DNA from: an uncultured archaeon
Lineage (GTDB): Archaea > Asgardarchaeota > Lokiarchaeia > Sigyniarchaeales > SOKP01
DNA length: 27,333 nucleotides
NCBI GenBank assembly: GCA_964388035.1
Contig: CAYLZE010000048.1
Location: 1 to 27,333 of the forward strand
Direction: 5' to 3'
The notes under the pieces are model-generated. The model was not told the DNA's origin. It saw only the letters and a program-made list of their open reading frames with translations, and made no database searches. Made by a program: the position numbers and the translations under genes. This document shows, in pieces, positions 3,040-26,067 of the stretch (the stretch's first letter is position 1; every line of letters starts with the position of its first letter).

Positions 3040-4473
3040 TCAAGAATGTAAATCTTTAATATCTATCCGCTCAGAATTATTCTTAAAAAATAACTTTTTT
3101 AGGGGTTCCAATGCTTTTTGATTCAATTCTTGTACCTTTTTTTCGTATGTGTCTCGAAAATGCTTTATTTCTTTTGGTAGAATTATATTAGGACTTTCTG
3201 GGCATACGATTCCATTATTCCTAATGATCCACCCTCTATGTTCGAGAGATGTAAGATTTTTTTCAATGATTGATTGCTCGATATTTAATGAGTCTATCAA
3301 TAATTCTTTTTTAGTTTCTCCTAAGGAAATTAACGTTGCATATAATTGTATTTGTAAATCCGTCAAATTTAAATATCTCAAGGTCATTAAGGTTTCTTCA
3401 TCGAAGTTTGAGATTCTTAACTTCTTTCGTGAAGAAGCTTTCTTTATTTTAGAAAGATCTGCTTCCAGATCAATTGTTATCGAGCCCTCTTCGAGTGCAG
3501 TATTAAATACCCTTTCCCCGATGTTATTTCGTATTATCACGCTATTCCAATTATCGGAAGGAGCCCCCGTGTTTCCCACGGAAATATCTGCATATTCTGC
3601 CGTATAATCCTTGCAATCCTTACAAGTAGACCATTCATAAGGTAAGATTTCCTTTAAAGGTACTTTAATGGACGTACCGTCATTTTTTAAGAGAATAAAT
3701 TTTCCCCGAGAAATATCCATCTTAGTAATGTCAGAGAGACTCAGATTTAATTTCTTTTTTATGAAAGTATCCAAAAGGTCATTGGAAAAATTTGCAGAGC
3801 AATAGAGACCGATAATTAGAGTAAAACTACTTAAAAATTCAGAAAGTGGGGGATAAACTTGTAATTTTCGCACAGCTTTTATTTGGCAAGGCATTCCAAC
3901 AAAAGCTAATTTTTTAAGATTGTATTTTTCAATCGCTTCTCTATATGGTACTAACGATGGAGCTATGGTATATTTAGAACCCATTGCAGATAGAATCTCT
4001 TCAGGAGTCTGGGCAATAATAGGCTTAGGTTTCCAATCCAGACCTCGATCGGTAAGAAGCACACCATCAATATAGCCCATTTCCAAGGCATGAATAAGTA
4101 ATGTGCTCACGATACCTCCATTCTGAGCTGCTTGTAAAATTCGTTTATGGGTGCTTTTTGCAATAACTATTTTTCTATAAGTTCCTAATAAAACATCATT
4201 TTTTGCTCCATCCTTAAAAAATTTGGCTTGCACGATGTCTTTAGGGAACTGGGTTCTTGCACAATATCGAAAGCATAAGGAACATTCGGGATCATAATCT
4301 TGAAGTGAAGGTTGTTCCTTAACTAACTCAATTCGAGGACATAAGGAAGAACATAATCCACATAATATGCAATTTTTTTCATCTACTACTAATTCTTTCA
4401 AATCTTGAAATCCTACTCCAAGATGGAAAGCTTCAAAGGAGTTATTTTCCTTTTCTTGGCATTTTTTCATCAT
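3040..4473 (-). CDS. Coenzyme F420 hydrogenase/dehydrogenase beta-subunit (FrhB/FdhB/FpoF family) with N-terminal ferredoxin and C-terminal TrmB-like wHTH
   Basis: CILCGLCSSLCP and CSLCFRYC; FrhB motifs QNGGIVSTLL, GSKY, VGMPCQ, IGLYC, CKDCKDYTAEYADISVG; about 120 extra C-terminal residues (LRYLNLTDLQIQLYATLISLG...LTSLEHRGWI...) resembling the TrmB N-terminal domain. Confidence 0.88.
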   Translation of the reverse strand: MMKKCQEKENNSFEAFHLGVGFQDLKELVVDEKNCILCGLCSSLCPRIELVKEQPSLQDYDPECSLCFRYCARTQFPKDIVQAKFFKDGAKNDVLLGTYRKIVIAKSTHKRILQAAQNGGIVSTLLIHALEMGYIDGVLLTDRGLDWKPKPIIAQTPEEILSAMGSKYTIAPSLVPYREAIEKYNLKKLAFVGMPCQIKAVRKLQVYPPLSEFLSSFTLIIGLYCSANFSNDLLDTFIKKKLNLSLSDITKMDISRGKFILLKNDGTSIKVPLKEILPYEWSTCKDCKDYTAEYADISVGNTGAPSDNWNSVIIRNNIGERVFNTALEEGSITIDLEADLSKIKKASSRKKLRISNFDEETLMTLRYLNLTDLQIQLYATLISLGETKKELLIDSLNIEQSIIEKNLTSLEHRGWIIRNNGIVCPESPNIILPKEIKHFRDTYEKKVQELNQKALEPLKKLFFKNNSERIDIKDLHS

Positions 4474-7555: not shown

Positions 7556-8443
7556 TTAGGGCTTTTCTTGTTCGGGGTGATACCCAAGGTGACCACGAGT
7601 TAGAAAAAGAATCAAGAGTGCCGGAATACCAAAACAGATGAGAGTCGCCAAGAACATGTTGGTAACACTTACGGCTGGAAAGAGTGGTATTAAAACAACT
7701 TGAGGCATATTTACACTAGTATGAGCCAAAATTGCAATAAAGACGCTTCCTTTGGTATGGTTGAAGATCCATGTAAACACTATTGCAATGCTTAAAATCA
7801 TCAAAATGAATATAGGAAAATTTATGTAAATGGAAGTTATTCCTGAACCGGGTCCTTCCCCTTGATATTCGGGCATTAAATAATCCGGTAAATGCCAGAA
7901 TGCCCATAAGATACCCAATAACAGGGTACCCCATAAAGGTCCATAGCGTGACTGTACGCGAGGTAAGGCAAAACCACGCCAGCCAGGTTCTTCACCCAGA
8001 GGGCCACCCCCAAAAAGAACAATAACGAAATAGATTAGATAACTCACTAGTGTCACGATTGTAAACCCTTGAATACCCACAAGCGTTCCTGGTTGGATTA
8101 TAATCCCAAGTACAATCATTATTGGGATGCCAACCAAGGCGAATAAATACCATGGCCAACCAACACGCCACAGCCTTATGCGTTTTTGCAAACGATGCAG
8201 GCCTTCTTTTCCCTCAGTAACGTTAATAACGATGATTGCAGCTAAAGCTGGTCCAAATGTACGTAAGGTAGCAGATATTAGCGCAATTCCCTCTGGAACA
8301 GCGATCCATCCCGAGAGAACATACGGGATTACGAAGATCCACGATATCACGTATGTCAGAAAAAAATAGAAGAATATTGGATGTTTTTTCATCATTTTTT
8401 CAGAGTTATTGGGGGAAGCGTCTGGTATACTCGATGCAGACAT
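7556..8443 (-). CDS. CPBP family intramembrane glutamic endopeptidase (type II CAAX protease/Abi/Rce1-like)
   Basis: GEEPGWRG (EExxxR), WAFWHLP, AILAHTSVN (HxxxN); multi-TM. Confidence 0.92.
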   Translation of the reverse strand: MSASSIPDASPNNSEKMMKKHPIFFYFFLTYVISWIFVIPYVLSGWIAVPEGIALISATLRTFGPALAAIIVINVTEGKEGLHRLQKRIRLWRVGWPWYLFALVGIPIMIVLGIIIQPGTLVGIQGFTIVTLVSYLIYFVIVLFGGGPLGEEPGWRGFALPRVQSRYGPLWGTLLLGILWAFWHLPDYLMPEYQGEGPGSGITSIYINFPIFILMILSIAIVFTWIFNHTKGSVFIAILAHTSVNMPQVVLIPLFPAVSVTNMFLATLICFGIPALLILFLTRGHLGYHPEQEKP

Positions 8444-8968: not shown

Positions 8969-11026
8969 ATGATTATCATGAAATCTATTGATAAAAAATT
9001 TAACAAAATTTATTCCGAACTAATTTTAGTATCCTTGATACTTTTAATCTTCTTTCAATTAATTTCAGATCTCGTGGAGACGATTTATATCAAATGCCTT
9101 TTATCTAATTCATTGAATGAAAACGTATTAGGAATATTAGCTCTTCTCTCACCTCTCGTTGTTTTTATTATTGGAAAAGGAAGGGATTTTTCTGATAAAG
9201 GAGTGATTGCAATCGGACTAATCATGGTGGGTTGTAGAGTTGTCGAGGCGTTCTTGACCATGGAAGCGAAAATTCTTTTTTCTGGAATTGGGATTGCGTG
9301 TTTCTTTATTTATTTCCCTCTTTATTTTCTTAAAAAGGATGCACAAGAAGGGGAAAAGAATGGATTGATATTGGGGCTTGGATTGGCATTTGCAGTTTCA
9401 TTATCCGTCCTTTTACGAGCTTGGGGATCTTCCTTGGATATTTCCACTTATGGATTATTTCAATGGATCGGATGGATAATAGCATTTTTCGCAGCGATCA
9501 TGATTATAGAAAATGCCTTACAAATCCCGGCACTACCTACGCAAGAAAAAAGCGATCGAGTACCTAGTAGTAAAAAAAAAATTCTAGGACTTACCTTAGG
9601 TTTAATTGGAATTTTAATTGTAGGCTATTTCGCTTTTAGCAGTCCCACTGTAATTGCAAGGTGGACAGAGATGAATTATTTCGTGGTGATTATCCTTTTA
9701 GTGATGATGATCACCATATTTGTCGTTATCGCCTCTTATAAACCAGAATTAATAAGTAAATTGAATCGCAAAGTTCTACTAATTTGGAATGCTCTTTTCG
9801 TGCTTTTCTTAACCTTAACAATCGCAGTAAATCAAGTAATATTCATAGATGATCCTGCATATTATCCGATCGTAGTTCCAGCAACAAGCATCTGGCAACA
9901 ACTTCCCGCCATCGTGATGTTAATTCTTTCACCAATACTATTCATTGATTTCACGCTTTTTTCAAGAGAATTAATAAAGGGCAGGCCTTCTCCACGAACC
10001 TTAGGGGGAAGCTTTACAATTGCGACCTTATTTTTCTTGCTAATGATTTTTGCCAATATCTTTACCGCAGTATGGGATTATATTCCTGTGGTGGGAGGAT
10101 TTTTCAGGGACTTGTATTGGGTGGTCTTCATGGTTGCGGGATTGGCTGTTGCCCTACCTTCTCTTCTCATAATGAAAAAAACGCTTAGATTTAAAATGCC
10201 TGCTTTTAACGTGAAGGATAGAGTGAAAGTCATCATAATAATTGTGATCATCAGCGTTGGAACGATTACAGGGATTTTTGTAGTTAATGCTAGGCCAATA
10301 ACACCAATGGGAGCTAAAAATACTCTTACTATTTTTACTTATAACGTCCAACAAGGGGTAAATGAGCCGGGGGTAAAAAATTTTGAGGATCAGATCCAAT
10401 TAATAAAAAGTATTGATCCTGACATTCTTGGCTTGGAAGAAACGGATACTGCGAGGATTGCAGGTGGAAATTCTGATCTCGTTAGAAAATTCGCTGATAG
10501 CCTAAACATGTATTCATATTATGGGCCCAAGACAGTAACATCAACCTTCGGAGTAGCATTATTATCCAAATATCCTATTAAAAATGCAGAAACCTTTTAC
10601 ATGTACAGTCTTCAAAAGTGGTCTCATACTCGAGAGCAAACGGCTTGTATCGAAGCAGAGATAACCATCGGGGCGATAACATATACCGTATTTGTTACAC
10701 ATCTTGGAAATGGCGCCCCTATAATCGAACAACAAGAAATATTACAAAGGGTTGCACAGAAATCGAATATTATCCTCATGGGTGATTTTAATTTTAAACC
10801 TGATTCCGAGCAATATAAGATAACAACACAAGTTTTAGTAGAATGCTGGGATGTTGCAAAAGTTAAAGTAGTAGGGGCAATTCCCGTTGATAGCGATCCC
10901 ATACCCGCACAAAGAATCGATCATATTTTTATATCCCCGACATTCAAGAACGACGTGGCATATTGTGAATACTTTGGTGGTACCATATCAGACCATCCCG
11001 CATGCTATGCAATATTAAATATATAA
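8969..11026 (+). CDS. Multi-TM membrane protein with C-terminal EEP (endonuclease/exonuclease/phosphatase) domain, Cwh43/PGAP2IP-like
   Basis: About 13 TM helices, then the EEP motifs TYNVQQG, ILGLEE, THL, MGDFN, RIDH, SDH. The segment GLEETDTARIAGGNSDL...LNMYSYYGP...FGVALLSKYPI resembles the Cwh43 C-terminal domain. Confidence 0.85.
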   Translation: MIIMKSIDKKFNKIYSELILVSLILLIFFQLISDLVETIYIKCLLSNSLNENVLGILALLSPLVVFIIGKGRDFSDKGVIAIGLIMVGCRVVEAFLTMEAKILFSGIGIACFFIYFPLYFLKKDAQEGEKNGLILGLGLAFAVSLSVLLRAWGSSLDISTYGLFQWIGWIIAFFAAIMIIENALQIPALPTQEKSDRVPSSKKKILGLTLGLIGILIVGYFAFSSPTVIARWTEMNYFVVIILLVMMITIFVVIASYKPELISKLNRKVLLIWNALFVLFLTLTIAVNQVIFIDDPAYYPIVVPATSIWQQLPAIVMLILSPILFIDFTLFSRELIKGRPSPRTLGGSFTIATLFFLLMIFANIFTAVWDYIPVVGGFFRDLYWVVFMVAGLAVALPSLLIMKKTLRFKMPAFNVKDRVKVIIIIVIISVGTITGIFVVNARPITPMGAKNTLTIFTYNVQQGVNEPGVKNFEDQIQLIKSIDPDILGLEETDTARIAGGNSDLVRKFADSLNMYSYYGPKTVTSTFGVALLSKYPIKNAETFYMYSLQKWSHTREQTACIEAEITIGAITYTVFVTHLGNGAPIIEQQEILQRVAQKSNIILMGDFNFKPDSEQYKITTQVLVECWDVAKVKVVGAIPVDSDPIPAQRIDHIFISPTFKNDVAYCEYFGGTISDHPACYAILNI

Positions 11027-11204: not shown

Positions 11205-12599
11205 TTAGGGCTTTAAACGGCTAAGCTCATCTCTCATGGAATCTAATTTTCGACCGTGCAAATCATATGATTTTAAAAACACTATAGCTATGACTAAGGC
11301 TATTGCGGGAAATAAGAACATCAGGAGTTTTAAACCAATCATCACGTCTACTCCAGGATTCGGGTTATAACCAGCCCATCCTGCTCCGGTGAAAACTATC
11401 GCGATAGTAGAAATTATAAGAATGATATGTAATCGATGAACAAATGCATTGGTTCCGTAGAAGCTGGCTGATCTTTTGACGCCGTGAGTTAATTCATCTT
11501 GGTCAATCACATCTCCTAGCATGATGTCAAAATAAAACATGTTTCCGCTGATACCAAATCCCACGATAGCAGCAAATAATATTCCTAATGCCATCATTCC
11601 TTCCCCTAATAATAGAAAGGGGAATAAAGAAACAATCCAAACTAGCTCGGAAATAATAAATGCTTTTCTCATGCCAAATTTCATTCCCATTTTTCTATGG
11701 ATGGGCATTGTAAGTGCTGCTACAATAAAAGCCATCATTAATGACATCCCAATAATAAGAGAGCCCCTCCCAACATCTAACACGTGTAAGCAATACAGAG
11801 GCCAAATGGTAGTCATCATGGTTAATACGTACCAATTCATGGTATTTGCAAGAACTAGCTTAACGAACGTGCGATTCCTAAAGCTCAATTTCAAGGAAGC
11901 AAAAAATGATGGACGAAGTTCAAACTGTTCTTGTAGTTCCTCTTTTTCTTTCACTCCATACTTAATGAATAATATCCCGGTTATGATGGTTATAATTGCG
12001 AATACAATGCCAACAGAAACGTACATCGAAGGAATTCGGGCTATTTCTTCAGGAGTACTATCGGGTAATGGAGCCATGGGAGAAATTACAAAGGTGGGAA
12101 ATACCATGGCAAATAAAATAGCAATAATCGTAATTACTCTTAAAACAAGGTTAGCAGATGCTCTTTCTTCTTCATTGGGCCACATTTCTGGAAATATTGC
12201 CTTGGTATTTACATCAAAGAGTGTATATATTAGCTCAAAAGTGAGGATAATCATCAGAAAATATACAAAATCCATACCTGCGGGAACCGTGAAGAGTAAA
12301 ATCATCCATAGACTTAATGGACCAATTGCAATGATCATAAAAAATCTTCGCTTCCCTAATTTTCCATATTTTTTTCTATCGGATAATGCCCCAAGCATAG
12401 GATCATTTGCTGCATTCCAAATACCCCAGATAACATATGCCAGCCACATTAAAAACATACTGATTCCTACAACCGCAAAATAGTACGTGAATACAAGAAA
12501 GGAAAAAGCTTGATATGTCATCAAGTCAGGAAATCCATTTAATCCAAAAAAGATCTTATCTTTTAATGTCCTTTTTAAAGTGTGTTTTTCTTCACTCAT
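11205..12599 (-). CDS. MFS transporter, GPH (MelB/Mfsd2-like) family
   Basis: IWNAANDPMLGALSDR...GKRRFF, EEERASAN, LGDVIDQDEL..GVKRSASFYG; 12-TM pattern. Confidence 0.92.
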   Translation of the reverse strand: MSEEKHTLKRTLKDKIFFGLNGFPDLMTYQAFSFLVFTYYFAVVGISMFLMWLAYVIWGIWNAANDPMLGALSDRKKYGKLGKRRFFMIIAIGPLSLWMILLFTVPAGMDFVYFLMIILTFELIYTLFDVNTKAIFPEMWPNEEERASANLVLRVITIIAILFAMVFPTFVISPMAPLPDSTPEEIARIPSMYVSVGIVFAIITIITGILFIKYGVKEKEELQEQFELRPSFFASLKLSFRNRTFVKLVLANTMNWYVLTMMTTIWPLYCLHVLDVGRGSLIIGMSLMMAFIVAALTMPIHRKMGMKFGMRKAFIISELVWIVSLFPFLLLGEGMMALGILFAAIVGFGISGNMFYFDIMLGDVIDQDELTHGVKRSASFYGTNAFVHRLHIILIISTIAIVFTGAGWAGYNPNPGVDVMIGLKLLMFLFPAIALVIAIVFLKSYDLHGRKLDSMRDELSRLKP

Positions 12600-12729: not shown

Positions 12730-13782
12730 TTATAAGGAAAAGATTTGAGCCAACCGATAGGTTCCTATTAAGGAAATTATTATTCCAAATATAATAGATA
12801 TTGAGTATAAATAGAATGCATAGGAACCAAGGGTAATATGATACCTTTTTCCTTTTTCAGTTTTATTTAATAGCGGAATACCAAAAAACGAACCTATAAG
12901 AATTAGTATCATGGTAATCAGCCCAATTATGCCGTGTAAGGAATAAAATATGCTTCCTCTAAGTTCAAAAGTTACGATTACCCAATAAATGAAGGTTGCT
13001 AAGGCCCCCGAAAAGAAAAGAATAGAAAATAACGCATGGAACCTTTTAGAGATAAAGTTAGGTAGCGCTATAAAGTCCGTTTTCCGACCACTAAATTTGC
13101 GTCCTGAAACAAACGATAATCCCGCAAAAATGAAAGTAATGGAAAAAAGATATGCGTGTACTATCCAAGCGGAAAAATTGGTTCTCATAGCTTGATCACT
13201 CCATCCTCGTTGTTCCCAATATCCGATATAATCATAATTAACAACTTCAATCTTGGTAATCCATTTTACCCATTTATACCCATAATGATCGGGACAGACT
13301 AATCTAAGAGGGAAGCCTTGTTCCTTAGGTAAAGGAACGCCATTCATATTATATGCCAATAAAATGTTTTCTGCAGAAGCTTCTCTGAGATTAAGTGAAT
13401 CAGCATATCCATCCGTAGCATAAAAAACAATATCATAGCTTCCTTCCTTCAAACCCGCCATATTTAAAAGTATGATTAAGGGCACTCCCTCCCATTCAGC
13501 AGTTCCGGTATATCCCTCCACACAATCTAACGTAGCTATCTCCTTTTTTGATTCTAATTGAGTGAACTGTTCATAATTATAGTGGAGTTTGTATTCAATA
13601 TTCCCTGTTATATCTAAGGACCATTCTTCTTGATTTATATTAGGAATCGCTCCTTTTTGAAGGACGAAAAATTGATCATTAGGTGTCATGAACGATCGTG
13701 AAAGGTGCATTAAACCTACGATCATTAATGGGAGAAATAATAGAATGAGGGTTTTAATCAAAATGGAATAGGATTTTTGCAT
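12730..13782 (-). CDS. Sulfite-oxidase-family molybdopterin oxidoreductase (MsrP/YuiH-like) fused to a 4-TM cytochrome b-like domain
   Basis: N-terminal TM/signal; TLDCVEG (Mo-ligating Cys), AEWEGVPL, DGYADSL, LAYNMNGVPLPKEQGFPLRLVCPDHYGYKWVKWI, GYWEQRGWS; four C-terminal TMs each carrying a His (IVHAY, RFHAL, SLHGI, RYHIT). Confidence 0.85.
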   Translation of the reverse strand: MQKSYSILIKTLILLFLPLMIVGLMHLSRSFMTPNDQFFVLQKGAIPNINQEEWSLDITGNIEYKLHYNYEQFTQLESKKEIATLDCVEGYTGTAEWEGVPLIILLNMAGLKEGSYDIVFYATDGYADSLNLREASAENILLAYNMNGVPLPKEQGFPLRLVCPDHYGYKWVKWITKIEVVNYDYIGYWEQRGWSDQAMRTNFSAWIVHAYLFSITFIFAGLSFVSGRKFSGRKTDFIALPNFISKRFHALFSILFFSGALATFIYWVIVTFELRGSIFYSLHGIIGLITMILILIGSFFGIPLLNKTEKGKRYHITLGSYAFYLYSISIIFGIIISLIGTYRLAQIFSL

Positions 13783-14075: not shown

Positions 14076-14693
14076 TCAGAGATCCTTAGATCCATCATAT
14101 CTGAGTGAATGAATGGAAATCAATATCACGTATAGTATGAACATTCCTATTGCGAACCATTCAAGGATGAAAACTGCATACAAGAACGCACCATAGATGA
14201 AATTGATTGCTGCACTCACTAAACCAAATATAGCAAGAAGTTTAAGTGTCTTGAGAAGTCTTAATAAGATCGTTGCCGAAAAGGTTAGGAAAAAACCAGC
14301 GAAGATAATGTGGATTTTGCCCGAAACCTCATGGACTTGTGTTTGTACCCCAAGGGGAAAGAGCGCGGTTATGATTAGAGAAATCGCCGAAATAATATTC
14401 GACACTTGGGCAATCGCTAATAAAACCCCACGTTTCTTCTCTCCATTGTCCCATATCCGAAGTCCGAGGCTAAAAACAATCAGAGAGAGCCCTGCAATAA
14501 TGCATCCCAAGTTGTATAAAAGAGCCCCATTTGTATTGACAAGGGGATTTCCCAAATCGCTAAGCCAATTGTCGATCGGATTGTATGAAATGGGATACAA
14601 GAGATAAGCGATTATCGCAAAAACCAGGTAAGAGGCACTTCCCGTGAAACCAGCCATCCAAACTAACTTATTGTTTATTTTATTAGCTTTCAT
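14076..14693 (-). CDS. DUF998-family membrane protein
   Basis: YPISYNPIDNWLSDLG, ALFP...VHEV, ILEW; about 6 TMs. Start placed at ATG 14693 (MKANK); the ORF track starts at TTG 14732. Confidence 0.75.
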   Translation of the reverse strand: MKANKINNKLVWMAGFTGSASYLVFAIIAYLLYPISYNPIDNWLSDLGNPLVNTNGALLYNLGCIIAGLSLIVFSLGLRIWDNGEKKRGVLLAIAQVSNIISAISLIITALFPLGVQTQVHEVSGKIHIIFAGFFLTFSATILLRLLKTLKLLAIFGLVSAAINFIYGAFLYAVFILEWFAIGMFILYVILISIHSLRYDGSKDL

Positions 14694-14785
14694 AAGTAGT
14701 TCTTTTCTTGCAAGGATAATAAAATTATCCAATTTATTAACTTTTATTTAAAAATCGAGGTAATTTTCCAATTTAATTTTACTCG

Positions 14786-16037: not shown

Positions 16038-17345
16038 ATGAAAGAAGACTATTCTAGGATTCTAAACGAACAAGGATCCCAGTTAAAGAATAAATTAGCA
16101 GAACTTTGGCGACAAAATAGTGTCCGCGGAACATTATTTTTACATTCCCTGTACATATTTTTGGGATTAGTCATTACCCTTTTCTTTTTGCGGGATCAGA
16201 ACGATTTTATTGTCTTCATGAAAGCAGGGGAAATCTTTCTTACTAAACCAAATGAATTGTATAATCAAGAATATTATTTATGGGATTTTCGATATTTTCC
16301 CGTGGTAGCTATCCTTTTCATTCCTTTTTATTTATTGGGTTTTGATTGGGGGTTTATTATTTTTAATTTAATGAGTTTAATTCTAAATGTTTTAATTTGT
16401 ATTTTAATATATAAGCTGATTTTATTGGTTAGAAATCCCGATCAAGAGACTGATACGAAACGACCTCTTTTATATAGCTGCTTTTACCTAATGGGAGTTC
16501 CACACGTGTTCAATTACGTTTTAGGGCAATTTAATATACCTTTTATTTTTGTAATTTTACTCTCCCTTTATCTATTTTTGAAAAAAAAAGGATTAAAATG
16601 GGAATTTGTGGCGGGGCTATTAATTGGAATAAGCATCATTTTAAAACCCATTGCTCTTACTTTAGTTCCTTTTATACTCATCATTCACCTTGATTTAAAA
16701 AGGAAGAAACTTAACATTAATTATTCGAAGAGTATTGTAAGATTAATGGGAGTAATCGTGCCAAACTTGTTTAACATCTTACTATTTATTCTCTATCCTC
16801 AAATGTTCAATGGTTTCATGGAAACTAACTTCACGGGGTCTACTCCTATAAGAATCAATTTTTCTTTTAGTGTTACGAAACTTATTTTGAATTTTTGTTA
16901 TATTGCAGATATTCCCTTCAATCAATTAACTATCCTTTTTGTAGTAGGGGTGATTTTTGCAGGAATAGCATTTTTTACTTACATAATTGGAGATGAAAAT
17001 GAATATAAAATTATTTATGGGTTTACTTTTGGCATTTTAATCCAATTGTTGGTTTTTTATGATTCATGGGATCATCATCTTTTAAATCTGACTCCTTTAT
17101 TGATATTGATAATCTTCAATTTACCCCGCCATTCTAAACTGGCTGCACCCTATTTTAAGAAGGGATTTTTCTTTCTGAACTTTTTTGATTTACTTTTCAT
17201 GAGTTTTTGGTTCTTGACGGCACCTTATTTTCCTTTCAATTACTATTCAACCGTGTTTTTAATCATAATTTTTATTGGAACGTGCAAATGCAGCATGTCA
17301 TTAAATAGCGTGCTGAATCTTCGAGAGAAAGAGGGGATCAAATGA
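16038..17345 (+). CDS. GT87/DUF2029 family GT-C glycosyltransferase (PimE-like)
   Basis: NDFIVFMKAG...LY...FRYFP, LGQFN, GISIILKP, SWDHH; about 11 TMs. Confidence 0.85.
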   Translation: MKEDYSRILNEQGSQLKNKLAELWRQNSVRGTLFLHSLYIFLGLVITLFFLRDQNDFIVFMKAGEIFLTKPNELYNQEYYLWDFRYFPVVAILFIPFYLLGFDWGFIIFNLMSLILNVLICILIYKLILLVRNPDQETDTKRPLLYSCFYLMGVPHVFNYVLGQFNIPFIFVILLSLYLFLKKKGLKWEFVAGLLIGISIILKPIALTLVPFILIIHLDLKRKKLNINYSKSIVRLMGVIVPNLFNILLFILYPQMFNGFMETNFTGSTPIRINFSFSVTKLILNFCYIADIPFNQLTILFVVGVIFAGIAFFTYIIGDENEYKIIYGFTFGILIQLLVFYDSWDHHLLNLTPLLILIIFNLPRHSKLAAPYFKKGFFFLNFFDLLFMSFWFLTAPYFPFNYYSTVFLIIIFIGTCKCSMSLNSVLNLREKEGIK

Positions 17346-18158: not shown

Positions 18159-19064
18159 TCATCCATATAAAAGTGGCCATAGGATAAAAGGAAATGATAG
18201 ATTTAATCCAATAAGGAGAATAATGATCATTATTCTATATCGCTGACGCCATTTTAAAGTCTTGATATGTTCTAAAAAAATGAGAATTAATAATCCTTCA
18301 AACAATAATTGAGCCGTTTGGAAAACTTGCCAAGAAAATAAGTAGATTACTAATAAGATATTGAAGCTATCCGATTGAATTTCCATGTAGGTCCAATTGT
18401 AATACATGCTGAGAAAATACTGGGGAAAAACCATGTAAGGAATGCATGAAATAACAAGCGGGGTAAAAAAGTAAATGAAAGCCTTTATATTTATCTTCTT
18501 TACGATTAACAACATGAAGGGGAAAATAATTAAAATGATTTTATATGTACCTAAGGAAAATAATATACCCGAAAGCCACTTTTTATCCTTAATCCATGCA
18601 TAATACGATAAAAATAATAATAGTTGGATTAACCAATTGTTATTATTCAAGTAGGCGTCAGCAAAAAAACCCAATCCCGCTAATATGAAAAAAATCACTT
18701 TATCCGTGCTGTTTTCAGAGATAATGTTAATTTTTTTAGCCACATAAATGCAAGAAATGATTCTAAGTACATCCCATGCATACACACCGATATTAATCGG
18801 AAGGAGATAGATGGGATAAAAAAGGAAATACCAAAAATAAAGATAATAAGCTCTAAACCCACCGATAGATCCCGTGTTATAATAATTTGCGAGTCCATTT
18901 TCCATGAACACGTATAATGTTTTAAAATCTATATCGCGATTATAGGAAAAAAAAGAATCTTGATAAAAGTAAAAGATTATTCTTAAGATTGTGAGAAATA
19001 TTGCGATTATGATAATCGAATAGATATAATATACATGAATGGGAGTAGATTTCTTTTCTTCCAT
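18159..19064 (-). CDS. Short GT87-like GT-C membrane protein
   Basis: TM1 followed by RDIDF, YYLYFWYFLFYPIYLLP, DAYLNNNN, GILFSLGTYK (Lys at the position conserved in GT87). Confidence 0.65.
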   Translation of the reverse strand: MEEKKSTPIHVYYIYSIIIIAIFLTILRIIFYFYQDSFFSYNRDIDFKTLYVFMENGLANYYNTGSIGGFRAYYLYFWYFLFYPIYLLPINIGVYAWDVLRIISCIYVAKKINIISENSTDKVIFFILAGLGFFADAYLNNNNWLIQLLLFLSYYAWIKDKKWLSGILFSLGTYKIILIIFPFMLLIVKKINIKAFIYFFTPLVISCIPYMVFPQYFLSMYYNWTYMEIQSDSFNILLVIYLFSWQVFQTAQLLFEGLLILIFLEHIKTLKWRQRYRIMIIILLIGLNLSFPFILWPLLYG

Positions 19065-19114: not shown

Positions 19115-21364
19115 CTAAATAACCCAGTAATAGGGTGTCTCAACGCCATTTTCGTCTTTAGAAGAATGGACTTTATTTAAATAATCTAAATGATAATATT
19201 GCTCTTGTTGCTCCTTAGAGAGATGGCCATAAACTTGCCATCCTACATTTAAAAAGTAAAAATTATCTACTATTATATATACATCAGTACCGTACTGTTG
19301 CTTTAATTTTTGTAGTTGATTCACTCCATTTACTATTTGATTTTCAGGAGGAAAATAATTTTCTTCAAAACTGATAACGATGATAATATCTGAATCTTTT
19401 ATAGACTTATTATCTTCGTTATAGGGGTAATCATAATAGAGAAAAACATAATCATGCCCGAATTCCGTATGCATGGCTATTTTTCCCGAAGTATATTGAG
19501 CAAGCCATTGGAACGAATGAACTTCGCGATGCTTCATCGAGAAATTGGAAATGCCAACATGATCGTAATAAGCAGTTGCTGATATCGAGAAAAAAATTAT
19601 AAATAATAGGAGGACTTTATACTTCATTCGGTGTATATAACCTGTTTTTTTTAATTTATAAATATAGGAGAGAAATCCAATGATAATAGCAACTGAGCCT
19701 AAATAAAGGACTCTTGTCCATACTTTCTCGTTTACGGTTAATAGATCCACGAAAAATACACCTAAAAATATGAAATTAATCGATAATGCCCACATGGTTA
19801 TTGGTTTTCCTCGTGGTTTCTTTTGAAAAATGGCAAGCCCCCAAAAGGAAAAGGAGAAAAAGGCAAATATATCAAAGATTAAAAAGAAAAAAGAAATATC
19901 CAGATTAAGAATTAATATATTTGCAATTAAAAAGGCGATAATAATAGTTATTAAAATTACCGTGATAATGGGTATTATGAACTTGTCTTCTATTTTTTTT
20001 ATGAACGTGCTTTGTTCTCCCATTATGGCTTTCTTATACCGTCCCTTGGTGAAAAGTAAGGATTTCTTAAATCTCCAAATGATCCATGCCCCGCCAGCCC
20101 CTACGGGGATAAAAAGATACCATGGTAAATTGAAAGGTTGGATAAAGTAATAATGTCCGTATCCCAAACCAGCAAAAGTGAGAATTAAATAAATTCCCAA
20201 TAGTAATATTAGTAAGATGAAATCAATCCCACGTCTATAACTCTTCAAAAAATAGACCAAATAAGTACTAACTAAAGGTAGTAATAAGATAATAGTAGTG
20301 ATCGCATGAGTAAAGGCACTACTAATAAATAGAAAAATAATTAAACTATAAGAGAATTTCATGGAAGTGACCATTTGCTGCTTATCGGGAGGGCGGAGTA
20401 GGATGAAATTTTGAAGCCGAGAATAAAATAAAAAGAAGATTTCTAAGCCGATAATGAATGCTAATCCGGAAGGCCAAAATTGGAGCATCATGTAAGAGAA
20501 CCCAAGCATGGAAAATTCCAAGATGAATACTCCCAAAATAGATAAATTCTGATTTTTAAAAATTAGCATGAGGATGTTGTAGAGAATGAGAGCAGATATG
20601 AAATAAGTAAAAAACACAAAATATCTCGGTATGTAGAGATAATCCACGCCCGAAAAGAATTGAATTACAGCTCCAAATACATGAAATCCTAACTCATTAT
20701 GATAATCCAGCAGGGGTAAATAATGCATTTCAGTGATCTTTTTTATTATTGTGAGATGATACCAAGGATCCGTGCCGAAGAAGTAAGGATTTCTCGCCAA
20801 ATTTAAAAGGCAAACAAGCAGAATAAATATGATTAAAAAAAATGCATTTTTCGACACTTTACCAGTTAATTGAGTAAAAATAGTGTGCACGTTAGTCTCG
20901 TTTTCATGAATTTCATGAGTTTTAATAAAAACCTTTTCCCCTCCTCGATATTGCTGGAAAATTAAAATAAAGATCAAGAGGAGATATGAGAGGGAGGATA
21001 CTACAAAAAAATAAAGTCCCGTGATTGAGATCCCAATATAAAAACCAATATATCCAGTAAGAATATAAAAACCAGTATTAGTAACTATGGTTATACTTAA
21101 TTTCTCTAAGACATTAAAATCTTTTTTCTTTACTATTAGGAAAAAAAGAGGATAGCTTGGTAAAAATAATATAACAAAAATTGTGCTAATTATTACAAGT
21201 GTACGGAATATGAATAAGAAAAAAGAATTCATTGAACTCCCAATTATAATGGTAATCTGAATTAAATTTAGGAAGATAAAAAAGAGTGAAATGAGAGAAA
21301 TAATCAGAATGCAGGTATTCTTTCGCGATCTTGCCTGAGAGCATAATCTATTTAACAAATTCAT
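19115..21364 (-). CDS. Large GT-C fold membrane protein with STT3/AglB-like layout
   Basis: Many TMs, loop motif FGTDPWYH, then YHNELGFHVF; soluble C-terminal domain beginning SFQWLAQYT...HTEFG. Confidence 0.7.
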   Translation of the reverse strand: MNLLNRLCSQARSRKNTCILIISLISLFFIFLNLIQITIIIGSSMNSFFLFIFRTLVIISTIFVILFLPSYPLFFLIVKKKDFNVLEKLSITIVTNTGFYILTGYIGFYIGISITGLYFFVVSSLSYLLLIFILIFQQYRGGEKVFIKTHEIHENETNVHTIFTQLTGKVSKNAFFLIIFILLVCLLNLARNPYFFGTDPWYHLTIIKKITEMHYLPLLDYHNELGFHVFGAVIQFFSGVDYLYIPRYFVFFTYFISALILYNILMLIFKNQNLSILGVFILEFSMLGFSYMMLQFWPSGLAFIIGLEIFFLFYSRLQNFILLRPPDKQQMVTSMKFSYSLIIFLFISSAFTHAITTIILLLPLVSTYLVYFLKSYRRGIDFILLILLLGIYLILTFAGLGYGHYYFIQPFNLPWYLFIPVGAGGAWIIWRFKKSLLFTKGRYKKAIMGEQSTFIKKIEDKFIIPIITVILITIIIAFLIANILILNLDISFFFLIFDIFAFFSFSFWGLAIFQKKPRGKPITMWALSINFIFLGVFFVDLLTVNEKVWTRVLYLGSVAIIIGFLSYIYKLKKTGYIHRMKYKVLLLFIIFFSISATAYYDHVGISNFSMKHREVHSFQWLAQYTSGKIAMHTEFGHDYVFLYYDYPYNEDNKSIKDSDIIIVISFEENYFPPENQIVNGVNQLQKLKQQYGTDVYIIVDNFYFLNVGWQVYGHLSKEQQEQYYHLDYLNKVHSSKDENGVETPYYWVI

Positions 21365-22577: not shown

Positions 22578-22681
22578 AATTAAACTTATAGAATCAATTT
22601 TTATTTCTTTCTTCTCATTTCTTGTATCACCGGGATATCACATCCTCTTTACTATTCGGATTGGTATATTATCACCATATT

Positions 22682-23599
22682 ATGAACGGCGTGAAAATAT
22701 CAGATGTAATGGAAGATTTCTTGATTGCAAAGGAAATTGAAGAAGGATGTTCCTCTGCGACTATAAGAGCTTATCGATACGATTTAAATAAATTTATTGA
22801 TTTGATTGGGAACCTTGAGATTGATTCTCCTCTCATGCGCCAGAAAATTAGATTATTTTTAAAAAAACTTAAAGATAAAAATTATACTAAAAGAGCATTA
22901 AGTAGAAAAATAGCCTGTTTAAGAGCTTTTTTTAAGTTTTTAACTCTAAATGAATTCATGACGATTAACCCCATGGATAAAATTAAATCACCAAAAATAA
23001 GAATAGAAGAAAATTTACCGAAATTCTTGACAATAAATGAAATGCGCTTAATTTTAAATAAAATTAATAATGCACAGCTGTTTAATTCAAAAAAAAGCCA
23101 GAGATATTACCTTCTTGTGAGGCTTCTCTATTCTACTATGGCAAGAGTGAGTGAAGTGTGTAATATTAAGATTAGGGATGTAGATTTTAGTAAAGGATAC
23201 ATAAAACTAAGGGGAAAAGGAAACAAAGAGCGAATAGTGCCGGTTGATTCCAAAACCTTGCAGATTATTAAACAGAATTTAACAGACCGACTTATATATG
23301 AACCAGACGATTATTTATTGGTGAATACTAGAAATGAGAAATTAACACCCAGAGTTGCGCAAAATGATATTAATAGTATAAAAGAAAAATGTGGATTTTC
23401 TGACTCGAAAATTATCACCCCCCACGTTTTTCGGCATACCGGAGCCACGCATTTAAGACGCTCGGGAATGGATATAAGTGAATTGCAGGATATCTTGGGG
23501 CATAGCAGCCCTAATACGACAAGAATTTACGCAAAAAACGATATCACCAAACTCAAGGAATCTTATACATTGATGCATCCCTTAAATAAAGAATTCTAA
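22682..23599 (+). CDS. xerA: Tyrosine recombinase XerA (XerC/D family)
   Basis: N-terminal SAM-like domain (SSATIRAYRYDL, RKIACLRAFFKFL, NPMDKI..PK...LPKFL); catalytic R (ARVSE), K (GKGNKER), HxxR (HVFRH), LGH and Y (TTRIY). Start placed at ATG 22682. Confidence 0.88.
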   Translation: MNGVKISDVMEDFLIAKEIEEGCSSATIRAYRYDLNKFIDLIGNLEIDSPLMRQKIRLFLKKLKDKNYTKRALSRKIACLRAFFKFLTLNEFMTINPMDKIKSPKIRIEENLPKFLTINEMRLILNKINNAQLFNSKKSQRYYLLVRLLYSTMARVSEVCNIKIRDVDFSKGYIKLRGKGNKERIVPVDSKTLQIIKQNLTDRLIYEPDDYLLVNTRNEKLTPRVAQNDINSIKEKCGFSDSKIITPHVFRHTGATHLRRSGMDISELQDILGHSSPNTTRIYAKNDITKLKESYTLMHPLNKEF

Positions 23600-24870: not shown

Positions 24871-26067
24871 ATGAAAATGGATGAGGATGAATTTAGAGCC
24901 CAGTTTACGGCTAAATCAGTGTTTAGACAAGCGAGTTCTCTAGATCTTAGTTTTGTCCCCGATAAACTTTTGTGCAGGGATGAAGCCATAAAAACTCTAA
25001 TCATCAATTTTAGAAGGATTCTCGAAGAAAAAGAACAGCCTTCTATCAACTGCTTGATCTTAGGTAAAGGAGGCGTGGGTAAGACAGTGACAGCAAGATA
25101 TTTTGGGAAGAACTTCAAAACTATTGCTTTAGAGCATGATGTGAACCTATTCATAGAATATTTTAATTGCATTAATTTTCGCAGTAAATCCAAAATTATT
25201 AGAGAGCTTCTGGCCAAATACACGCACGGATCAGGGCGAGGGTTTAGTGATGATGAGGCTATTAAATTAATCCTCACAAAATTAATAAATGAACAAGGGT
25301 ACATGTTACTCGTGATCGATGAGGTACATCTTCTAAAAGCTGAAGAAGTGTTGGCATTTTTAGATATTGCCGAAACTTTTGGGCATCAAAATGCAAAATT
25401 ATCTGTTCTCCTGATTTCTCGAATCCATGACTGGATGCGAATAGAAACGGAAAGGATATTAAGCAGAATTAATGAAAAAGTAAAGTTAAAACCTTATAAT
25501 TTGGAAGAAAGTCTTCAGATTTTAACCTATAGGAGTGAAATGGCATTTAAAGAAAGTCTTGATGAAGATATTTTAGAAATGATTGCTCAAATCGTTGTAT
25601 CGCATGAAAACATGCGCCATGGTATCGAGATATTAAGAAAGTGTGGACTATACGCCGATAAAGAAGGATTAAGTTATATTAATGCAGATATGGTAAGATC
25701 GGCTTCACAAGATGTATATCCAACTTTTCGAGGGGATATTGTGGATAAACTCAAGGATCAAGAATTATTGGCACTCTATGGGATTGCTCGCTCATTAATT
25801 AATAATGATGAACCTTATACTTTAGTAGATGATGCATTCATGGAATATGAGTCTTCATGTGAAACTTTTAATCAAGAACCTCATGTTAAAATGAGTTTCC
25901 GAAAATATATTAGACAATTAAAAAAGTTGAAAATAATTACCTCAAAAACGGAAAGAATAGATGATGCCGAGCGCGGAAGGCATTTAAGAATCACCCTATT
26001 AGATATCCCTCCTCAAACATTAATAGAATTTTTAGAAAAAATATTTGCTAAAAAGTTTGGAGAATAA
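24871..26067 (+). CDS. cdc6: Cdc6/Orc1 replication initiation protein
   Basis: LSFVPDKLLCRDE, Walker A GKGGVGKT, YFNC, Walker B LLVIDEVH, RILSR, LKPY, C-terminal winged helix (YIRQLKKLKII...RGRHLRI). Confidence 0.93.
   Translation: MKMDEDEFRAQFTAKSVFRQASSLDLSFVPDKLLCRDEAIKTLIINFRRILEEKEQPSINCLILGKGGVGKTVTARYFGKNFKTIALEHDVNLFIEYFNCINFRSKSKIIRELLAKYTHGSGRGFSDDEAIKLILTKLINEQGYMLLVIDEVHLLKAEEVLAFLDIAETFGHQNAKLSVLLISRIHDWMRIETERILSRINEKVKLKPYNLEESLQILTYRSEMAFKESLDEDILEMIAQIVVSHENMRHGIEILRKCGLYADKEGLSYINADMVRSASQDVYPTFRGDIVDKLKDQELLALYGIARSLINNDEPYTLVDDAFMEYESSCETFNQEPHVKMSFRKYIRQLKKLKIITSKTERIDDAERGRHLRITLLDIPPQTLIEFLEKIFAKKFGE

Follow-up and report, generated by a model that had tools for sequence, protein, structure and literature searches.

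A distant prokaryotic variant of the PGAP2IP/Cwh43 core in an Asgard archaeon, with a predicted MFS-fold membrane domain and a complete set of EEP catalytic residues

We analyzed a 27,333-nucleotide stretch of DNA (hereafter, the window) from an uncultured archaeon of the Sigyniarchaeales (Lokiarchaeia; Asgardarchaeota), located on contig 48 of a 5.47 Mb genome that is 96.7% complete. A gene on its forward strand encodes a protein that joins a polytopic membrane domain to a C-terminal endonuclease/exonuclease/phosphatase (EEP) domain. This protein is a well-supported distant prokaryotic variant of the core of PGAP2IP/Cwh43, which has been implicated genetically in the lipid remodeling of glycosylphosphatidylinositol (GPI) anchors. 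The features of the gene are listed below (aa, amino acids; TM, transmembrane helix; MFS, major facilitator superfamily; K/R, lysine/arginine), with the evidence for each in parentheses.

8969..11026, + strand: whole gene (P0001, 685 aa), MFS-fold domain, TM13 and EEP phosphodiesterase domain (open reading frame, translation, homologues, AlphaFold2 model)
9005..10168, + strand: TM1-TM12, residues about 13-400, predicted 6+6 MFS-fold domain with a cytoplasmic K/R-rich TM6-TM7 loop (Foldseek, VIA-align, topology)
9788..9934, + strand: TM9-TM10 stretch with N274 and P322 (invariant alignment columns, identical in the Cwh43-type proteins P0264 and P0266)
10061..10120, + strand: residues 365-384, FTAVWDYIPVVGGFFRDLYW, spanning an outward loop and the first part of TM12 (hhalign; junction motif common to Cwh43, YAFVPGGPLLRER)
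10211..10285, + strand: TM13, residues 415-439, the helix by which the chain passes outward once the MFS domain has ended on the cytoplasmic side (AlphaFold2 helix)
10322..11023, + strand: EEP domain, residues 452-685 (PF23226, PF03372, invariant columns, Foldseek EEP matches)
10430..10579, + strand: block GLEETDTARIAGGN...YYGPK...ALLSKYPI, residues 488-537, the best Cwh43-conserved stretch (translation; alignment to P0264)

The reading frame at 8969-11026 (+) is open and its translation gives a 685 aa product. Hydropathy analysis with the positive-inside rule and an AlphaFold2 model of the full-length protein (pLDDT 90.8, pTM 0.92) agree on 13 TM helices. In the predicted layout, six helices are followed by a K/R-rich cytoplasmic loop (186-201), six more helices, a second K/R-rich loop (403-409), TM13 (415-439) and an alpha/beta EEP domain (452-685). 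The N-terminus is predicted to lie inside and the EEP domain outside, with the KKTLRFK loop ahead of TM13 providing the positive-inside signal.

The EEP domain scores better against the PGAP2IP-type model than against the generic one. PF23226 (PGAP2IP-type EEP) scores 78 bits, above its cut-off of 27, at residues 452-620 (E 8.8e-22), covering profile positions 3-171 of 239 and thus only the N-terminal two-thirds of the model, whereas PF03372 (generic EEP) reaches 56.3 bits over residues 457-676 (E 4.9e-15); the same order of scores holds in all 61 relatives tested. The catalytic set is complete, comprising N459 (within TYNVQQG), E491, H578, D606 and N608 (GDFN, 605-608), D651 (RIDH, 649-652), and D675 and H676 (SDH, 674-676). 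All eight positions are invariant columns of the 61-sequence family alignment, and these columns are kept in every prokaryotic group examined, namely the core family, deep Asgard paralogues, a split EEP, fusions and a bacterial PF01663 group. A search of the PDB by sequence returned nothing below E 0.45. By structure (Foldseek), the nearest solved EEP domains are PDB 8j2f, 5uvg, 7cne, 4c1r, 3mpr, and 3g6s (E 5e-9 to 1e-6, target TM-score 0.47-0.70), with sphingomyelinases, both neutral and bacterial, among the structural neighbors. Overall, the model and the conserved residues point to an outward-facing, metal-dependent EEP phosphodiesterase that is tethered over the MFS-fold domain and is apparently active.

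For the membrane domain, a separate structure model of residues 1-445 (pLDDT 90.9) was used for fold searches. The top Foldseek matches in the PDB were all MFS transporters. VIA-align wide aligned 330-366 residues with Z scores of 13.1-19.5, spanning model residues 5-407, and its top 50 rows were all transporter-fold membrane proteins, nearly all of them MFS; NorA, VAChT, SotB, Spns1, MFSD2A, and LtaA were among the matches. As modeled, TM1-12 is an MFS transporter fold. The Pfam models MFS_1 and MFS_2 had no match to the window protein at E<=1, and one of the 61 relatives matches MFS_1; a language-model feature search of the TM region was uninformative (best score 0.83). Strong conservation within the TM domain is concentrated in outward-facing loops of its C-terminal half (226-233, SSPxVIARW, and 365-384), a position which, judged from the topology, would fit contact with the EEP domain or a substrate path. 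Separately, PF23021 (6TM_2nd_PGAP2IP) weakly matches an ordinary MFS_1 transporter of the same genome (contig C161, L085:463-1968, - strand; 21-23 bits), as would fit the TM domains of PGAP2IP being halves of the MFS fold. We rejected this match as evidence of family membership.

A profile search supplied the eukaryotic comparison, the two yeast-type Cwh43 proteins P0264 (964 aa) and P0266 (960 aa), both with the architecture Frag1 + PF23022 + PF23021 + PF23226. One such protein is encoded on an 88-kb contig beside a Ctr copper transporter and a seryl-tRNA synthetase, and is most likely from yeast because these contig neighbors are of eukaryote type. A single-sequence search for longer relatives found no eukaryotic sequence. 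When a family profile of the last four TM helices and the EEP domain was aligned with the two Cwh43-type proteins (hhalign), the match was highly significant (probability 99.4%, E 9.8e-22, 222 columns) and ran unbroken through TM11, the loop motif, TM12, TM13 and the linker, then across the N-terminal half of EEP as far as its His. The aligned junction loop motif reads YDYIPVVGPxFRD in the family and YAFVPGGPLLRER in Cwh43, where R380 is identical and Y371 and F379 are similar. Within the EEP domain, the block at residues 488-537 aligns with GLLESDNQRIIMGN...FGPGP...ALLSKFPI of P0264.

Conservation also extends into the rest of the membrane domain. The two Cwh43-type proteins both carry the family residue at nine of the 30 TM columns kept in >=85% of the prokaryotic members (L44, P62, L65, G211, W232, N274, P322, R380, and P443), among them N274 and P322, the sole invariant TM residues of the family. 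Unrelated MFS_2 pairs treated by the same procedure share 1/29 and 2/28 conserved columns. PF23021 matches 6 of the 61 relatives at collinear positions, one of them (P0260) just above the cut-off with 27.8 bits. A fold search of the ESM-Atlas, in which both sides are predicted models, retrieved a "PGAP2-interacting protein" cluster (Chordata, 699 aa, three PGAP2IP Pfam domains) with a TM-score of 0.82 (query) and 0.80 (target) over 617 residues (root-mean-square deviation 3.2), as well as two fungal Cwh43 clusters with a TM-score of 0.81, likewise predicted. Overall, the fused MFS-TM13-EEP arrangement is homologous between the archaeal family and PGAP2IP/Cwh43, pointing to one fusion event, and the relationship is distant.

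Cwh43-like identity had been proposed for this gene in an earlier sequence-only reading, and much of that proposal holds. The about 13 TM helices and C-terminal EEP domain that it described are supported by hydropathy, the positive-inside rule and the AlphaFold2 model, and each of the catalytic motifs that it listed (N, E, GDFN, RIDH, SDH) is present and invariant in the family. Its suggestion of Cwh43 similarity beyond a generic EEP domain is borne out by the profile scores (78 versus 56 bits) and by the hhalign match across the TM-EEP junction, and the whole-layout likeness by the structure search (TM-score 0.80-0.82 over about 617 residues). The conserved block that it placed at 10430-10578 is present as residues 488-537 and belongs to the unbroken hhalign match, but ends at 10579, one base further on. 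Two features that it attributed to yeast Cwh43, the block pattern and a partly degenerate catalytic set, are both seen in P0264 and P0266. These proteins retain only the equivalents of E491, D493, and H578, most catalytic residues being gone; SYLV stands in place of GDFN and RISR in place of RIDH, although the C-terminal half aligns less securely, and retention of the D675 equivalent depends on the alignment, being seen in one and not for both proteins in the other.

The family is conserved and occurs in Asgard archaea and in some bacteria. A word-indexed search found 97 full-length homologues (30-77% identity), all annotated merely as "endonuclease/exonuclease/phosphatase family protein". Those with a named source come from Heimdall-, Hod-, Hel-, Loki-, Thor-, Hermod-, and Promethearchaeota, from Chloroflexota (Anaerolineae, Caldilineae) and from a few other bacteria, in line with an initial expectation that bacterial homologues would exist. 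A profile search of 1.84 billion representative proteins gave 826 with E<1e-30, the best 150 of which are all close family, and a scan of species genomes gave 80 loci with the same taxonomic mix. Of 301 genomes sampled from the phylum, 112 have a family match (28 of 71 genera), with very uneven counts at the family level; thus, the gene is common yet patchy in Asgard archaea. The source genome itself encodes three full-length MFS-EEP paralogues and one split pair (elsewhere on contigs C3 (L002), C56 (L003), and C74 (L004)). In the split pair, a 426-aa polytopic gene overlaps a 269-aa EEP gene by 8 bp. Downstream of the paralogue on C56, which is very divergent, lies a GDPD (GDE-like) gene. In genomes labeled Hod or Heimdall, a deep-branching paralogue with about 25% identity to the window protein lies about 1 kb upstream of a core-type copy, forming a tandem pair.

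L010:5091-7028, L017:5072-7000, L019:5071-6999, L023:5057-6997: deep-branching tandem paralogues

The PGAP2IP-type EEP domain also occurs in other fusions. In bacteria, it is joined to a Polysacc_synt (flippase-like) membrane domain (P0243), and in proteins of about 790-820 aa of Omnitrophica/Sumerlaeota type to a PF01663 type-I phosphodiesterase domain (P0261-P0273, P0245, and P0246).

We examined the genomic context of the family at 83 loci. A single recurrent neighbor emerged, an MFS_2 transporter, which is also found next to the window gene.

11205..12599, - strand: MFS_2/GPH-family transporter, convergent with the gene and 179 bp downstream of it (Pfam MFS_2, 5.9e-44)
L008:6558-7928, L011:6519-7928, L012:5866-7281, L014:3969-5423, L016:3088-4458, L022:6557-7927, L006:16-759: other adjacent MFS_2 copies

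Such transporters occur at 16/83 loci, eight within 240 bp and the other eight within 7 kb, and all 16 loci belong to the window protein's own Asgard subclade. Seven of the eight close neighbors are in tandem upstream on the same strand; the window copy is the convergent, downstream one. At some loci, two MFS_2 copies flank an enolase-superfamily gene. Among solved structures, the window's MFS_2 transporter is closest to the lysophosphatidylcholine symporters of the MFSD2A type (full-length match at E 7e-17, versus 1e-5 for MelB). A functional link between this transporter and the PGAP2IP-like gene is possible. Apart from MFS_2 in this one subclade, no conserved operon was found, as no neighbor recurs at more than 11 of the 83 loci and those that do recur are general metabolic genes or Arf GTPases. 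Arf-family small GTPase genes lie within 2-7 kb of the PGAP2IP-like gene at 11 Asgard loci (e.g., L056:8466-9044), a recurrence that probably reflects the abundance of Arf genes in these genomes. Rce1-like CPBP intramembrane protease genes adjoin two of the three full-length paralogues of the source genome, in differing orientations. This protease was not adopted as a partner, since the genome has 26 CPBP genes and the other loci examined gave just one further match, about 4.9 kb from the PGAP2IP-like gene (L079).

7556-8443, - strand: Rce1-like CPBP protease gene in the window
L002:34-1029, - strand: Rce1-like CPBP protease gene beside a second full-length paralogue

We propose that the protein is a whole-length prokaryotic relative of the PGAP2IP/Cwh43 core in which TM13 positions the EEP domain at the external membrane surface, directly above the MFS-fold domain, and which acts on a lipid-type substrate; we put the probability of this reading at roughly 55%. 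The MFS-fold domain would bind a membrane-embedded or lipid-linked substrate and bring the phosphodiester head group of this substrate to the EEP site, which would cleave the head group by canonical EEP chemistry and might also transfer it. The reaction could be phospholipase C/D-like or sphingomyelinase-like, on an archaeal polar lipid or a lipid-linked glycoconjugate. We infer catalytic activity, a lipid-type substrate and cooperation of the two domains, and favor a lipid or lipid-linked phosphodiester because of the homology to a lipid remodelase, the sphingomyelinases among the structural neighbors, the lipid-handling proteins among the MFS matches, the MFSD2A-like neighbor and the GDPD gene beside one paralogue. 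Cwh43 exchanges the diacylglycerol/phosphatidic acid moiety of GPI for ceramide (PMC4962981). The sequence-only reading had suggested a phospholipase C-like or head-group exchange activity on archaeal (inositol) phospholipids, which is a conjecture only. The presence of one inositol-1-phosphate synthase gene in the genome was counted toward a lipid or head-group substrate.

Several observations weigh against this proposal. The eukaryotic side is represented by two yeast-type proteins alone. PF23021 had no match to the window protein at E<=1, nor on this gene in a search of its own genome, and PF23022 had none to the window protein or any of the 61 relatives, and none in the genome at E<=10. 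Aligned on its own, the TM region is weakly similar to Cwh43 (hhalign probability 5.4%, P 0.007, collinear over 339 columns); the comparison with an unrelated MFS family gave a result only modestly worse (P 0.027 over 56 columns). Because the EEP domain of yeast-type Cwh43 has lost most of its catalytic residues, function is not simply transferable in either direction. The top solved structural neighbors of the EEP domain are Bacteroides EEPs that include the mannosyl-6-phosphatase BT3783 (Foldseek), and the only EEPs characterized within its sequence cluster are soluble N-acetylglucosamine (GlcNAc)-6-phosphocholine/phosphoethanolamine phosphodiesterases, specific for the sugar rather than lipid (PMC10704324). 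The missing Pfam matches and the weak TM-only alignment, together with the PF23021 hit to an ordinary MFS_1 transporter and the fusions of this EEP type to Polysacc_synt and PF01663, would suit independent fusion of MFS and EEP domains in prokaryotes and eukaryotes, with only the EEP domains specifically related. We consider such convergence very improbable, as the significant hhalign match extends without interruption from TM11-12 to the EEP domain, taking in TM13 and the linker, N274, P322, W232, and R380 are kept in the Cwh43-type proteins far above the level of the MFS controls, and the same extra TM13 and relative domain placement recur at a TM-score of 0.8 over the whole length. The main rival concerns the substrate, because the only biochemistry in the EEP cluster is that of soluble sugar-specific phosphodiesterases. 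On that account, a scavenging ecto-enzyme would remove groups held by phosphodiester bonds, such as phosphocholine, phosphoethanolamine, or sugar phosphates, from glycoconjugates at the cell surface or outside the cell, and the MFS domain or the MFS_2 neighbor would import the product. Besides the sugar-specific relatives and the BT3783-like structural neighbors, the complete MFS transporter fold of TM1-12 would suit it, as would the GPH transporters, enolase-superfamily enzyme, BKACE, 3-hydroxyacyl-CoA dehydrogenase, and SDR found nearby in one subclade. However, the neighbor association is limited to that Asgard subclade, no MFS Pfam model matches the window protein, the characterized GlcNAc phosphodiesterases are single-domain as well as soluble, and the conserved TM residues, which recur in the lipid remodelase Cwh43, sit in outward loops beside the EEP domain. 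We thus regard scavenging as conceivable but rather unlikely, and retain action on a lipid-type substrate as the preferred reading.

Descent was examined with a carefully inferred tree of the EEP domain (58 rows, LG+C20), with two quick trees of the full-length proteins (42 and 23 rows), and with an approximately unbiased (AU) test on the 23 rows. In the EEP-domain tree, the window protein falls in a starred Asgard clade, and the eukaryotic pair, on a branch of 4.5 substitutions/site, lies outside the Asgard clade of 21 rows in an unresolved polytomy with bacterial members. In the full-length trees, the pair (branch 4.8-6.4) is placed near the base of the core family beside long-branched deep Asgard paralogues, and an Anaerolineae grade either contains the core clade of Asgard sequences or is its sister. 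The sequence-only reading had suggested a possible ancestor of Cwh43; the eukaryotic pair is, however, not sister to the window protein's Asgard clade in the trees run, and constraining it to group with the Asgard core clade lowers the log-likelihood by 5.6 units (p-AU 0.064), which neither rejects nor supports that placement. Conclusions on ancestry are limited because of long-branch effects and the two-sequence eukaryotic sample. In the strongest version, an Asgard protein already engaged in remodeling GPI-like or inositol lipids would have been inherited vertically as Cwh43/PGAP2IP at eukaryogenesis. Whole-length homology, the diversity of the family in Asgard archaea (with deep paralogues and split forms) and the unrejected forced grouping would suit this, as would the inositol-1-phosphate synthase gene and an Asgard affinity reported for GPI synthesis genes in general (a 2026 Nature paper, PMC12872458). 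We nevertheless judge it distinctly unlikely, given the position of the eukaryotic pair next to bacterial and long-branch sequences, the Anaerolineae grade, the patchy Asgard distribution and the failure to find core GPI pathway genes in the source genome. PIG-M, GWT1, and C13/GPI8 peptidase models had no match in this 96.7%-complete genome (the control for the GWT1 model matched nowhere), and Frag1 gave only sub-threshold matches, which fall on DUF998 genes (C91, C29); the genome does encode nine generic PIG-L-family deacetylases. A DUF998 gene lying 3 kb downstream in the window was considered as a Frag1-like partner and rejected, since there are 18 copies in the genome and DUF998 is near the family at 3/83 loci.

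14076-14732, - strand: DUF998 gene

Although DUF998 and Frag1 look distantly related, this gene has no hhalign similarity to the Frag1 domain of Cwh43 (P 0.79, thin alignments). The same low standing applies to the scenario in which the prokaryotic MFS-EEP protein is the catalytically competent ancestral form of the GPI lipid remodelase, the archaeal enzyme already exchanging or cleaving the lipid moiety of inositol-phosphate-linked lipids, Asgard archaea passing the fused gene to the first eukaryotes, and the eukaryotic branch later losing canonical EEP catalysis. Given the trees and the strong Anaerolineae presence, we make no claim of vertical descent; the window gene is a side branch of an Asgard/Anaerolineae family and not a demonstrated ancestor of the eukaryotic gene.

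Human CWH43 is named in the hydrocephalus literature; to our knowledge, the chemistry of Cwh43/PGAP2IP is unresolved and there is no solved structure. Prokaryotic relatives, with an intact EEP site, an MFS-fold domain and no introns, would be easier objects for biochemistry and cryo-electron microscopy, and could show how a transporter-fold domain passes a lipid head group to a phosphodiesterase. Since the yeast-type pair lost most of the catalytic residues that the prokaryotic relatives keep, Cwh43 should be treated with caution as a conventional EEP hydrolase. For eukaryogenesis, the family adds one more membrane-lipid-related protein that is common to Asgard archaea and eukaryotes. In the literature searched, no paper was found describing the whole-length MFS-EEP homology or the contrast between intact and degenerate active sites. 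A 2023 paper in JBC did place EEP domains of an "Asgard/Chloroflexus group" beside those of Cwh43p and PGAP2IP, and noted that this group differs in size and domain organization (PMC10704324).

Other parts of the window carry features of separate interest. Two genes for GT87-family (polyprenol-phosphate-mannose-type) glycosyltransferases lie beside 749-aa and 253-aa ORFs (open reading frames) without a Pfam match; a tyrosine recombinase (phage-integrase family) gene is located about 1.3 kb upstream of an Orc1/Cdc6 gene, an arrangement that would fit an integrated element or an origin region; and two genes encode unusual fusions, one of FrhB/FdhB (F420 hydrogenase beta) with a C-terminal TrmB-type helix-turn-helix and one of a molybdopterin oxidoreductase domain with a DUF4079/cytochrome b561-like membrane domain.

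16038-17345 (+), 18159-19064 (-), 19115-21364 (-): GT87-family glycosyltransferase genes and adjoining ORFs
22622-23599 (+), 24871-26067 (+): tyrosine recombinase and Orc1/Cdc6 genes
3040-4473 (-), 12730-13782 (-): the two fusion genes

Compared with known systems, the window protein shares parts with several. MFS transporters, including the lipid-handling MFSD2A, Spns, and LtaA, have the same 6+6 topology, a central cytoplasmic loop and a superposable TM1-12; the window protein differs in adding TM13 and a fused enzyme domain and in lacking an MFS Pfam match. Sphingomyelinases and Bacteroides EEP phosphatases such as BT3783 share the EEP fold and act on phosphoesters of lipids or sugars, not on nucleic acids, but identity is 13-19% and the domain context is another. 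The GlcNAc phosphodiesterases belong to the same EEP sequence cluster, have an intact catalytic set too and are metal-dependent, as the window protein is predicted to be, yet they are secreted single-domain proteins of 219-357 aa without TM helices, whereas 13 such helices precede the EEP domain here, and the study that characterized them separates the Asgard/Chloroflexus group from their Clostridia group (PMC10704324).

The closest likeness is to PGAP2IP and the C-terminal two-thirds of fungal Cwh43, which have 12 TM helices (6+6), an extra TM helix and a C-terminal non-cytoplasmic EEP domain, as does the window protein. The PGAP2IP cluster representative is also of similar length (699 versus 685 aa). 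Shared in sequence are the block GL.E.D..RI..GN...YGP...LLSK(Y/F)PI, the TM11-12 loop motif, and W232, N274, P322, and R380. Unlike PGAP2IP/Cwh43, the TM region of the window protein stays below the PF23021 and PF23022 Pfam thresholds. Fungal Cwh43 has in addition a Frag1/PGAP2-like N-terminal domain that is absent from the archaeal protein, and its EEP catalytic set, intact in the window protein, is mostly lost in the two yeast-type sequences.

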